This document shows, in pieces, positions 1-5,809 of a stretch of DNA of 5,809 nucleotides; position 1 is the first letter of the stretch, and every line of letters starts with the position of its first letter. The notes under the pieces were generated by a model that was not told the DNA's origin, ran no database searches, and saw only the letters and a program-made list of their open reading frames with translations. This stretch comes from a virus (lineage: Duplodnaviria > Heunggongvirae > Uroviricota > Caudoviricetes). The position numbers were made by a program, and so were the translations under genes. The stretch lies in the IMG/VR virus record IMGVR_UViG_3300039368_000109. One strand, 5' to 3'.

Positions 1-60
1 CTGATAGAAACAGAAGCCACTGGAGCACCTCAAAAACACCATCATACACTAAATCAGTAA

Positions 61-360
61 GTTGGCAGCATCACCCACTGCCTGCCTGGAAATATATCTA
101 CAAAAAGCTGTGTAATACGCAATGCGGCGCAGGCCTTAACTGACGATGGAACTCTATACGGAGCCACAATTCTTGGCGATGGAGTTGTGCACAATAGCTT
201 CGGTCAAAAACTGATGCGCATTTACAATCAGAAAGGCATCTTTTCAAACACAAAAGATTCCGAAGAAGGCTTAACACATATACTCTCAGAGCATTTCGAG
301 AATGTTAAAACCAAGGTTCAAGGTACTGTAGTAATGTTTTCCGCTTCAGGGAAAAAATAG
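61..360 (+). other. Unassigned 100-codon open frame ending at TAG 358-360, convergent on tfa; possible small CDS (first ATG at 214 gives 48 aa) or remnant/pseudogene of cargo DNA
   Basis: Plus-strand frame 1 is stop-free from 61 to 357 (hand translation VGSITHCLPGNISTKSCVIRNAAQALTDDGTLYGATILGDGVVHNSFGQKLMRIYNQKGIFSNTKDSEEGLTHILSEHFENVKTKVQGTVVMFSASGKK). The same frame is also open from the window start to an in-frame TAA at 58-60. No convincing SD before ATG 214 or GTG 187. The region looks AT-richer than the tail-fibre genes by eye. Confidence 0.25.
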
Positions 361-414: not shown

Positions 415-999
415 TTACTCCCTGACAGGGTTCGTAGGCCACTCAATATCAGGTGCAGTTGATGTATCAACACGGTTCAGCAACACCCGATACTTTTTCC
501 AGGCTTCCAGCAATGAGGTTTCTTCCTCCGTTGCAATTTCCAGATCTGCAGCATCCTGAAGCGGCGCAATATGCTCACTGGCTACCTGCATCAGGTTGTT
601 TTTTGTTTCTTCCGCCTCCCGGATCCGGAACAGTTTTTCTGCTTCCGTATCCTTCACCCAGGCTGTGCCGTTCCACTTCTGAAACTCCCCTTCCGGCGAT
701 AACCAGGTAACATTTTCCGGTAACGGACCGAGTTCAGAAATAAATAACTCGTCCCCTGACGCTACGTCATAAACCGTTTTCCCCCGATGGTCTTCAACGA
801 GATGCCACGATGCCTCATCACTGTTGAAAACAGCCACAAAGCCAGCAGGAATATCTGGTGGTGCAATATCGGTACTGTTTGCTGGCAGACCTGTATGAGG
901 CGGAATATATGCGTCACCTTCACCAATAAATTCATTAGTTCCGGCCAGCAGATTATAAATTTTTATGGTCCGTGCTTGTTCACTCATTCTGAATGCCAT
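415..999 (-). CDS. tfa: Tail fibre assembly protein Tfa (chaperone for the Stf C-terminal tip; T4 gp38 / P2 G family)
   Basis: 194-aa ORF starting [79 protein letters not shown]..., nearly identical to my recall of lambda Tfa (also 194 aa). ATG overlaps the stf stop (TAATG), which suggests translational coupling. SD-like TGAGG sits 8 nt upstream. Confidence 0.95.
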
Positions 1000-3900
1000 T
1001 ATGCAAGCCTCACAATATAGTTAAATGCGATGTTTTTGACGGTGTTTTCCGCGTTACCCGCAGCGTTAACGGTGATGGTGTGTCCATGTGAACCAATCGC
1101 AACGGAGTGCGTATGCGCACCAATACCTACAGTATGTGCATGTGCGCCAGAACTTGCTGCAGTACCAGACAGCGAGTGGGTATGAGCACCTGCTGACTGT
1201 GTCTGAATACGTTGATAATACGATCTATAGGAAGAAGTCTCCGGGCTTACTTGATACTGTGAATTCTGGACATAAGTGAACCCACCGCCATCATAAAATG
1301 CTAACGCAGAACCGCCGCCTCCTGGCCAACGAATACCATTACCATGAGTATGAACACCGGCAGACCCCGTAGAGCCACTCAGACTGTGCGTATGCGCCCC
1401 GGTGTTATTCGTGGATTTAGTGCCGTAATCAAACGACGATGTGGTTTTCGTCCCCAAATCCGTACTGGATGCGCTGGCGCTGTGGGTGTGCGATTTTATG
1501 CCGTCCTGTTCCTGAGACAATACGGCCCGGCCACTGGCGGGTTTGCCCTTGATTGTCCAGCCGCGCATATCTGGAATAACACCTGAAGGATAGGCAATAG
1601 CCAGTTTCGGATATGCTGCCTTATCAAACGTCTGCCCCTGCATGATCGCATAACCTGCAGGTGGTGTATCTGATGGCCACGGCAGCGGAACACCTGGCGG
1701 AAACGCTTCAATATTTGCCGAGCCGTCAAATTTTACGCCGTTAATTGTCCTTGCAGTTTGCAATTTGGTTGCTGTGCTTGCATTACCCGATAAAGATCCA
1801 GTGATACCACCACTCGCGTTTAATTTAGTTGCAATTGTAACATTGCCAGTATGGTTACTAATTATAAACGGCCTTAAGCTATTGTGCGTACCAAGACTGT
1901 TACCCGAATCTGTCAACATAAAATATGTGTTTGATCCATCATTTCGGATAAAGAATCCATAGTTGCCATAGGCAATACGCAGACCATTTGCTGACCTTGA
2001 AATAACCTCACCAGCAGCAGTTAAACCACCTGAAAGAGTCCCTCCAGTTAATGCCAATGCCCCAATATTTGAAGGGGTCAATGTGATATTTGCACTACCA
2101 TCAAATGACACACCGTTAATCGTTCTGGCTGCCTGAAGTTTCGTGGCGGTCGCAGCATTACCTGTAGTGTTTTGATTACCGGTAGCGTTGACTCCAGGCA
2201 AGTTGATATCTGCCGATCCATCAAATGCCACGCCCCCAATCTTACGTGCTGTCTTGATCTTGGTCGCAGTATCTGCGTTTCCGGTCAAATTACCAGTAAC
2301 ACTACCACCAACTTTTAGTCCATTACCGATGGACACCAACCCTGATCTTAAGTTTATAGAGAATGGTCTTAATGAACCGATGTCTCCATTTTCCCCCTCC
2401 CCTTCATTAGTCGGAATAAGATGAAGATGATCTTCGGAACGCCTAAAAATAAGGCCAAAGGCTTGGTTGAATATTCGAAGAGCATTTATCGTGCTGATTT
2501 TTAACTGCCCTCCCATTGTGTCGCCAGTTTTTTGAACTGAACTATCTTTAACAGTTTTAACTGCCTTTGGCGTTGCCGCCAGCTTTTCACTGGTGCTGTT
2601 TGTTGCACTGCTGAGCTGTACTATCCCCTTTTTCGTCGTGCTCGCATCCTCCAGCGCCACGGCGGATGCAATATCCTCTGCCCGTTTTGCTGCTGTCTCG
2701 GCGCGCGTTGCCGCGGATTCAGCAGCAACTTTGCTCTGAGATGCAGCCGTCGCACTGCCTGCCGCCTCTGATGCTTTCGTTGTTGCTGTCGTGGCACTAC
2801 CTTTCGCTGCTGACGCTTGTCTGGTCGCCTCATCTTTTGAAGCAGACGCAGATGATGCCGATGACGCCGCTGAACTGGCTGACGATGCGGCTGCCGCCTT
2901 AGAGGAAGCAGCATTGTCTGCTGAAGTCTTTGCATTTGTTTCAGAGGTTTTTGCTGCAGAAGCAGACCTCGCTGCTGCAGTGGCTTGCTCAGTGGCTTTG
3001 CCAGCTTTCGTTGTGGCTGTTGAAGCGGATGATGCGGCGCTTTCTGCCGATTTTCCGGCGGCGGTGGCACTGGCTGAGGCCTGCCCGGCACTTGTTGACG
3101 CGGCACTGGCAGATAATGCAGCCGCTGTTTTTGAACCTGCCGCAGCTGAGGCGCTCTGTCCCGCTGCTGTTTCAGAAGACTTAGCGTTCGTCTCGGACGT
3201 TTTTGCCGCCTTCGCGGAATTTCCTGCCGCCGTTGCCGAGGAAGCTGCACTACTGGCACTTGATGATGCATTCGTTTCTGAAGATTTCGCTGCCTCTTTT
3301 GAGGCCGCCGCACCCCGTGCCGAGGTGGCAGCTTCTGACGCCTTCGTGGTCGCTGTGGATGCAGAAGTGGCTGCCGATTTTTGTGATGCTGCGGCATTCG
3401 TTTCTGACGTTTTCGCGGCACTGGCGCTGGTAGCTGCCGCGCTTTTTGATGACTCTGCAGCAGCAGCACTTTTTGCTGCTTCACGGGCCTTTGTCGATGC
3501 CGTTCCTGCGCTGGAAGACGCTGACTGAGCCGACGACGCGGCCTGTCCGGCTGACGTGCTGGCGGCACGTGCTGAGGCTGCAGCATCGGTTGCATGAGTT
3601 GCCGCCTCGCTGGCTGATGCACTGGCATCGCTGGCTGATTTTTTCGCGGCTGCCGTATTCTGTGCAACCGCGGAGGCGTTACGTGACACCTCTTCCACCA
3701 TCTGCTCAAAGCGGCGCAGTGCCTCCGGTCGGACATCATCCTCCGTCATGGCACCGAGAAAATCATTCAGCGTACCTGGTCTGGAACCTTCATAGACGGT
3801 AATGGTCCCGGCATGTGAAGGCGGAAAACCTTCAACCAGCAGGGTGACGCTGTACTGGCCATGCTCAACATCCATGCTGTAACGTCCGGCTTCATCCGGA

Positions 3901-4025
3901 TTTTCAGAGGCCACCGTGTTCACCACCACCGTGCTGCTGGTTCGTCTGGCCTTCAGCACAATGGTGCAGTTCTGTACTGGTTTTCCTGTGCCATCTTTAA
4001 GCACGCCAGAAATTTTTACTGTCAT
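999..4025 (-). CDS. stf: Side tail fibre protein Stf, 1008 aa, intact full-length form with a lambda-like N-terminal attachment region and C-terminal receptor-binding tip
   Basis: Single uninterrupted ORF. N-terminal ~110 aa ([22 protein letters not shown]...) and C-terminal ~230 aa (...[59 protein letters not shown]...[31 protein letters not shown]) match my recall of lambda Stf. SD GGTGGA lies 6 nt upstream of the ATG. Stop TAA shares its last A with the tfa ATG. Followed by tfa, as in lambda. Confidence 0.93.
1080..1493 (-). other. His-x-His motif cluster in the Stf C-terminal tip ([14 protein letters not shown] twice, [34 protein letters not shown]); probable metal-coordinating fibre-tip domain
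   Basis: Motifs read directly from the translation (about aa 845-982). T4 gp37-type fibre tips are known to use HxH repeats to coordinate iron ions in the needle domain, and the lambda Stf C-terminus is known to be gp37-related. Confidence 0.55.
1710..2480 (-). repeat. Internally duplicated ~90-aa module in Stf, each copy ending in a tail-fibre-type repeat (A-T-K-L/I-x-T/A-A-R-x-I-x-G-V-x-F-D-G-S-A-x-I), plus a third copy of the short repeat between them
   Basis: Protein-level alignment by eye: aa 516-606 ([91 protein letters not shown]) against aa 682-772 ([90 protein letters not shown]). Third short repeat at aa 626-648 ([23 protein letters not shown]). The motif resembles the Pfam 'phage tail fibre repeat' family as I recall it. 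Confidence 0.7.
2631..3683 (-). repeat. Ala/Ser/Thr-rich low-complexity quasi-repetitive tract inside stf (about aa 115-465)
   Basis: In the Stf translation the motifs AAKTSETNA (three times), STATTKA(S/G) (three times), SASSAASSA and TSAGQAS recur. The DNA is dominated by GCN/TCN/ACN codons, which is why long stop-free frames appear on both strands here (ORFs 2621..3739 and 2791..3528 in the supplied track). Confidence 0.85.
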
Positions 4026-4045
4026 ACTTTTCCACCAATAAAAAA

Positions 4046-4071
4046 AGCCCGCAGCAGTGACGCCACGGGCT
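4046..4071 (-). terminator. Candidate intrinsic terminator / stem-loop downstream of lom and immediately upstream of the stf RBS
   Basis: Seen directly: 6-bp stem AGCCCG (4046-4051) / CGGGCT (4066-4071) with a 14-nt loop. On the minus strand the hairpin is followed by a U7 tract (plus-strand AAAAAAA at 4039-4045, the last A shared with the stem), then GGTGGA and the stf ATG. The loop is large for a canonical terminator, so confidence is moderate. Confidence 0.4.
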
Positions 4072-4176
4072 TCAGGACAGTGTAACTTTACGTTTCCTCA
4101 AACGCAGTTCACCCCATAAGGTGGATGAACCTGCGTATCATAACAATATTTACAGAAGATAAATCGGCGTCTGTTG

Positions 4177-4776
4177 TCAGAAACGGTATCCGATACCAAC
4201 AATAAATGCATCCGTTCGCCAGTCGCCACTACCGGAACCTTCATAAGCAAGGTCAATGGTTACGGATTCGGTCGGGTTAAACTGCACGCCAGCCCCCCAC
4301 GCCAGAGACGTGTTGCTGTGGCGACCGTCATCACTTCCGGTCAGCACATCGTGCGTTTTCCCCTTGTTGTCAGTTACGCGGAGATAATCCCCGGAGAAAG
4401 TCGACACACGGCTGTAAGCCACACCCACCATCGCATACGCGCTGAACCATTCATTCACGCGTACAGACGGCCCCGCCATCACGCTGAACCAGCGGTTACG
4501 CACGGAATCTTCATGCCAGCGGGTATCGCTGTAGTGCGTTTTTTGCTCATCCTCAGCATTGGCATAACTGAAGGACGTAATCAGCCCCAGCGCGTCCGTA
4601 AACTCATAACGGTATTTCACGTTAATCCCGTTCAGATTATCGCTGCCGGGAGCGTTCGTACGGGCATGAAGATACCCCGCGCTCAGTGTGGACTGATGTT
4701 CAGACGCCCATGCAGGCGCACCGGATACGGACAGACAGATGGCTGCGGACAAAATGGCTGCACAAACTTTACGCAT
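4177..4776 (-). CDS. lom: Lom outer membrane protein (Ail/Lom/OmpX/PagC family 8-stranded beta-barrel); lysogenic-conversion moron
   Basis: 199-aa ORF. N-terminus MRKVCAAILSAAICLSVSGAPAWA is a typical Sec signal peptide (basic n-region, hydrophobic core, AWA cleavage motif). C-terminal ...FIVGIGYRF ends in an aromatic residue, as outer-membrane beta-barrels do. Sequence matches my recall of lambda Lom closely. Good SD upstream. Position between J and stf as in lambda. Confidence 0.93.
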   Translation of the reverse strand: MRKVCAAILSAAICLSVSGAPAWASEHQSTLSAGYLHARTNAPGSDNLNGINVKYRYEFTDALGLITSFSYANAEDEQKTHYSDTRWHEDSVRNRWFSVMAGPSVRVNEWFSAYAMVGVAYSRVSTFSGDYLRVTDNKGKTHDVLTGSDDGRHSNTSLAWGAGVQFNPTESVTIDLAYEGSGSGDWRTDAFIVGIGYRF

Positions 4777-4790: not shown

Positions 4791-4806
4791 TTTCTGCAAT
4801 AAAAAA

Positions 4807-4824
4807 GGCGCCATTTCTGGCGCC
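4807..4824 (-). terminator. Intrinsic-terminator-like hairpin between J and lom (GGCGCCA-4 nt loop-TGGCGCC; on the minus strand followed by TTTTTTATTG)
   Basis: Seen directly: 7-bp GC-rich perfect stem 4807-4813 / 4818-4824 with loop TTTC; the plus strand has AAAAAA at 4801-4806, which is a U6 tract immediately 3' of the hairpin on the minus-strand transcript. Lies 17 nt after the J stop and about 25 nt before the lom start. Confidence 0.55.
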
Positions 4825-4843
4825 CGTATATGGGTTATAAAAT

Positions 4844-5809
4844 TCAGCTGATACTGATGCCTGCGGTGGCTTTCTTCATCACCACAACCAGCAAATCGCT
4901 GATACTTGCTGTGGGATACCAGTTATTCACCAGCCATGCTGACACCGAAAACTCCAGCGTCATGTGGCCGCGACCAGCTGGCATATCAATAACACCACTG
5001 TAAATCAGCGTATTATCCAGCGCGGTACGGTTATAAATTTCAGCACCGTTTTTCCGTACTATCAGGCGGCATGACGAATAAATATCGTTATTCTCCCGCT
5101 CATGTTTAGCGCCGCTGAATGCCACCGCCGGAATAACAATTTGCCTGTCAAAAGGCTGATCGTCATAAATCCTGACGGTAATGGTCCCTGATGGCCACCG
5201 CTCCGGTGCCCGGGAGTCCCGCGGAAAAGCCTTACCCACTGTTTTGACTATATCGCCTTCAATCTGGTTGGCTGACAGTTTCCCCTTAATCTGACAGTTC
5301 TCATTAATTGTGACATTGTTGAGCGTCCCGGCGTTCGCATTCACACTGCCACTGATATCTGCATTTTTAGCGGTCAGTTTTCCGTCCGGTGTCAGGGAAA
5401 ATGCCGGAGGATTACCGCCGCTGGTAATGGTGGGAGCCGTCAGGCGTTTCAGGAACACGTCGTTCATGAATATCTGATCGCCCTGACCAACAAACATCGG
5501 CTTTGTGTTGCCATTCGCAGGATTAATCATCGCAATCCTGTCTGCCGCCAGCAGCACCTGACTCTGCATTCCTGCTGGCGTATTCTCAATACCGGCACCG
5601 ATACCCGCAATATAAAGGCGTCCGTCCTGCATCTGCTGCAGCTTCACAGCCCACATGCTGTTCAGATTATTATTTGTATCAACCTGAACCTTCTGTATCT
5701 GCTGGATTGCCGCACTCTGATTTTCCAGTTTTTTATTGACGGTCTGCGTGATTTCATTGCTGACATCCGTAATGGACGTCCTGATTTCAGCCAGGTCAGG
5801 CGCAAGCTG
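4844..5809 (-). CDS. J: Host specificity / central tail fibre protein J, C-terminal part (5' end lies beyond the right window edge)
   Basis: The listed 270-aa ORF (4844..5656) continues in the same frame with no stop up to 5809; I translated the extra 51 codons by hand ([51 protein letters not shown] then [22 protein letters not shown]...). This matches my recall of the lambda gpJ C-terminal region. Stop codon TGA at 4844-4846 (minus strand). Position directly upstream of lom matches lambda gene order. Confidence 0.88.

Follow-up and report, generated by a model that had tools for sequence, protein, structure and literature searches.

A 1008-residue side tail fibre gene of a lambda-like prophage, probably assembled as a mosaic around a gp34/Mu S-type shaft

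What kind of fibre is encoded by a long open reading frame (ORF) whose two ends recall the side tail fibre protein Stf of phage lambda and whose centre does not? The question is raised by a window of 5,809 nucleotides (nt), the whole stretch of DNA that was analysed, from the IMG/VR virus record IMGVR_UViG_3300039368_000109. Positions given below are those of the window, and features lie on its minus strand (-) unless marked (+). The ORF (999..4025, 3027 nt, 1008 amino acids (aa)) starts with ATG and runs uninterrupted to a stop codon at 999-1001, as had been claimed in an earlier note made from the sequence alone, which described an intact, enlarged and apparently mosaic side tail fibre. We consider it very probable that a lambda-like prophage has its side tail fibre gene (stf) in this ORF, that the gene was built as a mosaic, and that its product has the fibre architecture and adsorption function proposed below. 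The gene order at the locus, J - lom - stf - tfa, is the canonical lambda order, as established from the ORFs of the window and their Pfam matches, the wider context being taken from Escherichia coli ATCC 25922. The estimate that the protein exceeds the 774-residue Ur-lambda Stf by about 230 aa is accurate: Ur-lambda Stf, rebuilt by joining lambda orf-401 to the upstream-extended orf-314 frame, has exactly 774 residues, and the excess amounts to 234 aa. The rod contributes +105 aa to this excess, the stretch from the ATPKAVK to the PWPSD box +140 aa (291 aa in the query, 151 aa in lambda), and the tip -11 aa; the ATPKAVK box ends at aa 490 in the query and aa 385 in lambda, and the PWPSD box starts at aa 782 and aa 537, respectively. 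Nearly half of the extra length sits in the coiled-coil rod and not in the shaft.

The ancestry of each segment was read from global alignments with four comparators, namely Ur-lambda Stf, StfR of the K-12 Rac prophage, the Stf of the O104:H4 strain HUSEC2011 (944 aa), and the D72 Stf (1137 aa). Over aa 1-108, the query is 85% identical to lambda, 89% to StfR, 100% to HUSEC2011 and 90% to D72; over aa 109-303, the values in the same order are 82%, 93%, 72% (gapped) and 93%. The ensuing segment, aa 304-408, is absent from lambda and mostly absent from HUSEC2011, and is 91% identical in both StfR and D72, while aa 409-491 returns 82%, 90%, 92% and 90%. Identity then collapses, with 12%, 19%, 25% and 20% over aa 492-612, 22%, 27%, 62% and 24% over aa 613-649, and 13%, 45%, 19% and 45% over aa 650-772. 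It recovers over aa 773-892 (86%, 88%, 90% and 91%), falls again over aa 893-944 for lambda (21%) and StfR (23%) but not for HUSEC2011 (96%) and D72 (94%), and ends at 88%, 98%, 100% and 100% over aa 945-1008. Two identity jumps are sharp, one after the ATPKAVK box (aa 490) and one before the FPxGxPxPWPSD motif (aa ~773), and they bear out the proposal of a different central shaft gained by modular exchange. The description of both ends as lambda-like holds for aa 1-108, 773-892 and 945-1008, but the tip is not uniform, since aa 893-944 departs from lambda. Because of these segment identities, the query is best described as collinear with StfR rather than with lambda as far as aa 490, followed by a private shaft and by a tip whose island depends on the allele. 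Judged from sequence, the mosaic is finer than a contrast of ends and centre, its units being the rod, which varies in length, two shaft sub-modules that can be separated, and, within the tip, a head island. No single characterised Stf gives a full-length, near-identical and collinear alignment, and the coverage of the stf gene by phage records reaches at most 71% at the DNA level.

The shaft is where the query parts most clearly from lambda. Junction 1, shaft module A and repeat 1 (from aa 582) occupy aa 491-612 (2190..2555), where identity to lambda, StfR and HUSEC2011 drops to 12-25%. Repeat 2 (aa 613-649; 2079..2189) is placed by a motif scan and coincides with a crossover site, the switch point of the related proteins P0023 and P0024. 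Module B, of the T4 gp34/Mu S type according to Pfam and structure matches, and repeat 3 (from aa 747) cover aa 650-772 (1710..2078). Pfam reports a strong hit with Gp34_trimer (PF21446; aa 620-722, 94.2 bits vs a gathering cutoff of 27), and the short Phage_fiber repeat is also matched in the 1008-residue protein. Module B (~aa 667-745) resembles residues 268-350 of Mu S (5yvq; 93.4 bits for the aligned stretch, whole-sequence expectation value (E) of 1.1e-25) and residues ~1040-1121 of T4 gp34 (E ~1e-17), the structure matches of the shaft for T4 gp34 being 4uxe, 5nxf and 9x3r. The central region thereby finds its place among tail-fibre families. The motif scan finds the first residues of the three GNAxTATK[IL]xxAR.I.GV.FDGSA.I repeats at aa 582, 622 and 747; as previously supposed, these repeats are foreign to lambda Stf, whose shaft is 12-22% identical there. 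An internally duplicated module of ~90 aa had also been noted; the duplication is borne out, with a size of ~107 aa, since aa 501-607 and aa 667-772 share 42% identity over 107 aa (E 7e-23; Smith-Waterman z = 25, 500 shuffles), and it is ancient. It is through this 42% identity to module B that module A is assigned to the gp34 type. An AlphaFold2 monomer model of aa 482-788 predicts the same 3 + 2 strand pattern in modules A and B, a β-hairpin in each of the three repeats, and β-strands at aa 515-566 in the module A part; Foldseek analysis of this model against the PDB returns only Mu S and gp34 at E < 1e-3. The guanine-plus-cytosine content of the shaft (0.41-0.47) lies below that of the rod (0.57-0.62) and of the tip (~0.50-0.55).

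The relatives of the two modules indicate where the exchanges took place. Module A is 82-100% identical to parts of proteins P0009, P0023 and P0024, and module B is 70-80% identical to the P1/P7/Mu-type S fibres. The match of P0023 and P0024 with the query begins at MGGQLK (aa 504), takes in module A and repeat 1, and extends into repeat 2 as far as ATATKLQ; none of the shared residues differs, which gives 90% over aa 492-612 when the 12 missing N-terminal residues are counted. Past ATATKLQ, P0024 continues with an StfR-type distal domain and then a gp37-type tip, and P0023 with an unrelated C-terminal domain (Pfam PF21882). Because both proteins leave the query after ATATKLQ for different distal domains, the crossovers fall within the repeat. 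A donor for the entire shaft was found neither in phages, nor in E. coli genomes, nor in a set of 5.8 billion proteins, the search of the latter with the 287-aa shaft having returned only proteins of at most ~500 aa, among which the identical 1008-residue protein is not listed. The protein matches obtained extend over sub-modules only, and the best of those from phages are likewise partial (CMS-2020a, 65%; P7 Sv', ~70%). DNA of the 861-nt shaft has a bimodal distribution among E. coli genomes, 423 of which carry it full-length at ≥99% identity, matches elsewhere being limited to short pieces.

These 423 genomes equal in number the carriers of the whole gene, at least 80% of stf being present in 423 of 5426 complete E. 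coli genomes (~8%), and 419 records carry it at ≥99% identity. Among the carriers, the prophage of E. coli ATCC 25922 holds a copy with 100% DNA identity (DR76_RS19575, WP_000216487.1, annotated as 'prophage tail fiber N-terminal domain-containing protein'), located at the end of a complete-looking lambdoid structural module integrated beside potB. That the full gene recurs at 100% identity across many independent, complete genomes rules out an assembly artefact or a chimeric read. Nor is the sequence new, because an identical, uncharacterised RefSeq protein exists in hundreds of genomes, and the literature yielded nothing specific on this stf allele or on the fibre of the ATCC 25922 prophage. 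IMG/VR was scanned with the first 135 aa of the protein, and the best 80 loci of 593 confirmed relatives, taken together with five other loci (L002-L006), gave 61 complete Stf ORFs; nearly all have close N-termini, yet they fall into more than 40 classes of length and architecture, the 1008-residue architecture being represented by five of the 61 and by one 1001-residue variant (L019). The novelty implied by the mosaic is small, because such mosaicism is the rule for Stf genes. The stf gene described here is, on present sequence evidence, an uncharacterised allele in which every module comes from a known family and whose mode of evolution is textbook for tail fibres. The same allele is split by an insertion sequence (IS) of the IS3 family in strain SW070919 (H31, NZ_CM129861.1 2449199-2453538), from which it follows that some stf copies are undergoing inactivation.

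The N-terminal attachment (tail collar) domain StfN covers aa 1-91 (3753..4025), with limits taken from the Ur-lambda structure paper (PMC12617516). Pfam assigns phage_tail_N (PF08400) to aa 1-134 (E 5.6e-70, 234 bits vs a cutoff of 26.6), and phmmer matches the domain with the lambda Stf chain 9e7m_Ta determined by cryo-electron microscopy (E 3.6e-47). A segment at 3723..3752, set by a gap-free collinear alignment with lambda Stf and by the limits of the same paper (PMC12617516), probably joins this domain to the rod. The Ala/Ser heptad-repeat rod, or proximal coiled coil (aa 102-490, 389 aa; 2556..3722), ends in the conserved ATPKAVK-type box and is 90-93% identical to StfR without gaps. Its composition over aa 109-470 is 38% Ala, 23% Ser and 11% Thr, and its strongest periodicities are 3.5 and 7 residues; the homologous residues 102-393 of Ur-lambda Stf form a proximal trimeric coiled coil (PMC12617516). 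Global alignments delimit a stretch of 15 heptads (aa 304-408, 105 aa; 2802..3116) that is absent in lambda and present in StfR, and that resembles adjacent rod segments (42-54% identity) when shifted by a multiple of 14 aa. At ~0.15 nm per residue, these 15 extra heptads would add roughly 15 nm to the rod. Other rods differ from that of the query by whole heptads as well, by 105 aa in lambda, 112 aa in HUSEC2011, 7 aa in L019 (otherwise unchanged in architecture) and also by 224 aa, and five of the seven distinct positions of the ATPKAVK box are in heptad phase (490, 483, 385, 378 and 266). This prevalence of whole-heptad differences suggests in-register unequal recombination that preserves the coiled-coil phase. 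An additional junction lies within the rod, because the Stf of strain 203740 (1008 aa) is identical to the query from ~aa 304 on and 89-92% identical before.

The distal end of the fibre is of the gp37 type. Junction 2, the collar domain and the first half of the HxH needle (aa 773-892; 1350..1709) are assigned by Pfam Collar (aa 778-825, 40 bits vs a cutoff of 24) and by structure 2xgf; a hypervariable head island of 52 aa (aa 893-944; 1194..1349), the presumed receptor-contacting tip, follows; and the returning needle half with the conserved C-terminus (aa 945-1008; 1002..1193) is defined by the segment identities and the motif scan. Residues 743-1008 align with residues 2-242 of the T4 gp37 tip structure 2xgf_A (E 1.2e-79), and outside the island 92 of 120 residues (aa 773-892) and 48 of 64 (aa 945-1008) are identical to T4. 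Seven HxH motifs, at aa 846, 878, 892, 948, 962, 971 and 980, each align with one of the seven of T4 gp37; StfR also has seven, and lambda Stf eight. In the needle of gp37, such motifs are reported by Bartual et al. (2010) to bind seven iron ions.

The island behaves differently from the needle that carries it. It is 94-96% identical in the D72 and HUSEC2011 Stf, 21% in lambda and 23% in StfR, and matches T4 at 12 of its 52 positions. Counted along the alignment, it corresponds to T4 gp37 residues ~932-961 with 19 gap positions, being 19 aa longer, and contains the equivalents of G938, T939, V941, G943, Y949, Y953 and A955. Mutations of exactly these residues in T4 gp37 alter the recognition of OmpC or lipopolysaccharide (LPS) (PMC5221442), and within this region (938-955) T939, V941 and A955 are not conserved in the island, a divergence of head residues that bears on the prediction of specificity and leaves membership of the fold family intact. 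Magaziner and Salmond observed that divergence in this tip family concentrates where T4 receptor specificity is set (PMC9659904). At ≥95% identity, the island is found in 720 of the 5426 complete E. coli genomes (~13%), ~300 more than the shaft, and it is also carried by StfR-type (D72) and HUSEC2011-type fibres, so that at least three different shafts bear it; because of these counts (720 vs 423) and of its presence on other fibre types, head and shaft assort independently. Among the relatives, rod length too assorts independently of shaft and head island. Precedents exist for OmpC as receptor, in lambda Stf (PMC12617516) and T4 (PMC5221442), and for LPS core sugars, in T4 on strain B and in the Gifsy-1 Stf, a lambda-type Stf (PMC12312913). 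Because the island is too divergent, neither specificity can be transferred to this fibre.

Comparison with Ur-lambda Stf (P03764, 774 aa) shows what has been kept and what has been exchanged. The two share the J-lom-stf-tfa locus, the N-terminal collar domain (85%), the Ala/Ser rod where both possess it (82%), the ATPKAVK box, the collar and HxH needle of the tip (86-88%), and Tfa (94%). Ur-lambda Stf has a hinge at residues 394-422 and, after it, a distal six-chain coiled coil at residues 423-525 (PMC12617516); in the query, gp34/Mu S-type modules and repeats, 283 aa in all, stand in place of this whole stretch (394-525), and a lambda-type hinge and distal coiled coil are not recognised there (12-22% identity, large gaps). 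Lambda has in addition an extra SFDYGTKTTG unit, with eight HxH motifs vs seven in the query. Because gp34/Mu S-type modules occupy the hinge interval, the query is a member of the Stf family by its ends and not a collinear orthologue of lambda Stf. The K-12 Rac StfR (b1372, 1120 aa) is closer: it is collinear without gaps over aa 1-490 (89-93% per segment), possesses a single gp34-type module, 45% identical to module B, with a GNAxTATKLQ repeat after it, has the same seven-HxH tip frame, and is accompanied by a TfaR that is 96% identical to Tfa of the window. StfR differs by a 420-aa shaft with other proximal and distal domains, such as an AFARR...YRNGGLFYRSS domain absent in the query, by the lack of module A, and by a head island that is 23% identical and 21 aa shorter.

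Likenesses to contractile-tailed phages are confined to parts of the fibre. The whole tip aligns with that of T4 gp37 (2XGF), including the collar domain, the seven HxH motifs in register and an identical extreme C-terminus; T4 gp37 differs in using the chaperone gp38 (plus gp57A), where the query has a lambda-type Tfa, and the rest of its fibre is unrelated. The counterparts of module B are the C-terminal region of T4 gp34 (4UXE, 5NXF, 5NXH) and the S fibres of Mu, P1 and P7 (5YVQ), P7 Sv' reaching ~70% identity over part of the query shaft, and the repeats resemble the gp34/gp12 repeating fibrous motif (PMC5537660) by motif only, without a residue-by-residue alignment. The gp34 and Mu S fibres belong to phages with contractile tails and have other N-termini and tips, whereas the query holds two such modules in the side fibre of a siphophage. 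R393 and S528 are the lambda Stf residues at which published engineered chimeras (lambda-P2, -K1F, -K5 and -KL106) were joined, both points being experimentally validated (PMC11338833). In our reconstruction, R393 comes right after ATPKAVKVVMDETNR, and S528 is the S of GAGENS, right before AFPAGAPIPWPSD; these fusion points are the two positions where the query fibre switches ancestry. In the engineered chimeras everything distal to the fusion is replaced, while in the natural fibre the exchange is confined to what lies between the two points, and a gp37-type tip is retained.

Taken as a whole, the modules suggest the following fibre. The N-terminal domain would anchor four trimeric fibres through a 12-mer collar as in Ur-lambda, and would be followed by a coiled-coil arm longer than that of lambda, and then by a β-rich distal shaft with two knobs. 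The shaft would consist of two paralogous modules of the T4 gp34/Mu S type, each followed by gp34/gp12-type GNAxTATK repeats. The tip, a gp37-type collar and needle, would be metal-stabilised via its seven HxH motifs, and contact with the receptor is most likely made by the head island at the distal end. Tfa, conserved at 94% identity with lambda Tfa and 96% with TfaR, is paired in this gene cluster with a C-terminal needle that is 98-100% identical to those of StfR, D72 and HUSEC2011, and would chaperone the folding of this conserved needle. Such a fibre would mediate a fast and reversible primary adsorption to an outer-membrane protein or to LPS, ahead of irreversible binding through J. The gene itself very probably originated by recombination at short conserved linkers, namely the ATPKAVK box, the GNAxTATKLQ repeats and the PWPSD box, with heptads of the rod gained and lost in register.

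Three other explanations have to be weighed against this proposal. The gene, although intact in appearance, may be a decaying remnant in a cryptic prophage and have ceased to be expressed or assembled, as is the case for stfR in K-12 Rac. Defective prophages do house many Stf genes of E. coli, and several observations weigh against a functional fibre gene here: in the prophage of the window an IS1 element is inserted ~340 bp past the end of tfa, so that this copy may be decaying; a strong terminator-like hairpin lies just upstream of stf and could limit its expression unless late antitermination reads through; and the IS3 insertion of SW070919 splits the gene. Two further points count against the proposed mosaic fibre itself: the ATPKAVK-box positions 482 and 270 break the heptad rule (differences of 8 and 220 aa), and the strict form of that rule, rod indels being always whole heptads, fails; and only the monomer of the shaft was modelled, with a mean predicted local distance difference test score of 65.5 and a predicted template modelling score of 0.36, so that the model serves for secondary structure and Foldseek family and not for geometry or hinge. 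The 3027-nt frame is nevertheless uninterrupted, Tfa is intact too, the terminase-to-tail module upstream in ATCC 25922 is annotated as intact with zero pseudogene flags, and 419 records carry the gene at ≥99% identity, all of which makes a remnant improbable. The long shaft might also be lineage-specific rather than imported, if the two 107-aa modules had arisen by a recent tandem duplication inside this gene. Both have the same order of elements, a domain and then a GNAxTATK repeat, and the same predicted strand pattern, but they are only 42% identical, each has closer relatives elsewhere (P0009, P0023 and P0024 at 82-100% for module A, P1/P7/Mu-type S at 70-80% for module B), and Tandem Repeats Finder reports no DNA-level tandem repeat at the duplicated modules; a recent tandem duplication is rejected on these grounds, its likelihood being very slight.

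The receptor is a more delicate matter. The fibre could retain the OmpC receptor of Ur-lambda Stf and T4 gp37, the swapped shaft altering only reach or geometry: identity in collar and needle reaches 86-88% with lambda and 75-77% with T4 gp37, the island retains the W-x-G-G-G and S-Y-R motifs present in T4, and both known relatives use OmpC. The island that holds all mapped T4 host-range residues (938-955) is however 21% identical to lambda and 12/52 to T4, is 19 aa longer, and does not conserve T939, V941 and A955, and the Gifsy-1 Stf shows that a lambda-type Stf can target the LPS core; retention of OmpC is rather unlikely on this balance. It is a tentative suggestion that the head island defines a receptor specificity distinct from the OmpC/LPS-glucose specificity of lambda Stf and T4 gp37, and that the two rigid gp34-type modules alter the reach or angle of the fibre. 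If this were true, the change of shaft could, for example, help the fibre to reach through O-antigen or capsule in strains, clinical or commensal, of which ATCC 25922 is an example, and the fibre would offer a natural, ready-made module for retargeting lambda-based delivery particles. The mosaic side tail fibre gene that we favour provides in any case a clean natural instance of modular exchange among tail fibres, with its main junctions at the fusion points chosen by engineers. Identification of the receptor of the common island would make one more specificity available for retargeting lambda-derived particles; in practice the value is modest, and the current view of Stf biology is unchanged.

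The genes that surround stf conform to the lambda pattern. Downstream, tfa (415..999, 194 aa) encodes the tail fibre assembly chaperone (Pfam Caudo_TAP PF02413, E 1.9e-44), and its ATG (999-997) overlaps the stf stop codon by base 999. Upstream lie lom (4177..4776, 199 aa), encoding an Ail/Lom outer-membrane protein (Pfam Ail_Lom, E 5.8e-126), and the 3' part of gene J (4844..5809), which encodes the central tail fibre (Pfam Ig_GpJ_C and Phage_Tail_Tip) in a frame open to the window end at base 5809. Against residues 862-1131 of lambda J, the C-terminal 270 aa of J show only 59% identity, and divergence is much stronger in the receptor-binding domain formed by the last ~130 aa; the central fibre probably does not use LamB in the way lambda does. 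Between lom and stf, the terminator-like hairpin (4044..4073, with a 13-bp stem and a T-run, its function putative) ends 19 nt ahead of the stf start, and a GGTGGA Shine-Dalgarno sequence then precedes the ATG; expression of stf presumably needs antiterminated late transcription. A second strong terminator-like hairpin with a T-run is located after J (4806-4825), so that the two hairpins flank lom.

At the other end of the window, bases 1-75 (+) are the end of an IS1 element, and homology to ATCC 25922 stops at base 76 (junction 75/76). For this reason the window does not derive from ATCC 25922 itself. These 75 bases match elements annotated as IS1 family transposases at a median of ~10 places per E. 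coli genome, and the exact junction was not found as one contiguous match in the complete genomes of the collection. The insertion truncates a gene for a class I S-adenosylmethionine-dependent methyltransferase, the 3' part of which (76-360 (+)) is convergent with tfa. An invertible segment as in Rac, P1 or Mu was considered and set aside, as no invertase adjoins tfa, the methyltransferase gene being found downstream instead. The D72 and Rac loci have a Pin-type invertase at the equivalent downstream place (L006 6048-6638). In ATCC 25922, outside the window (L001 24484-24657), an N-terminally truncated second tfa fragment lies beyond tfa and the methyltransferase gene, and may be a relic of an invertible tail-fibre segment. 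Lastly, two ORFs in other frames overlap the Ala/Ser rod, at 2621-3739 (-) (372 aa) and 2791-3528 (+) (245 aa); they are most likely by-products of the GCN-rich repetitive coding, comparable to the lambda antisense orf206b, and not genes.

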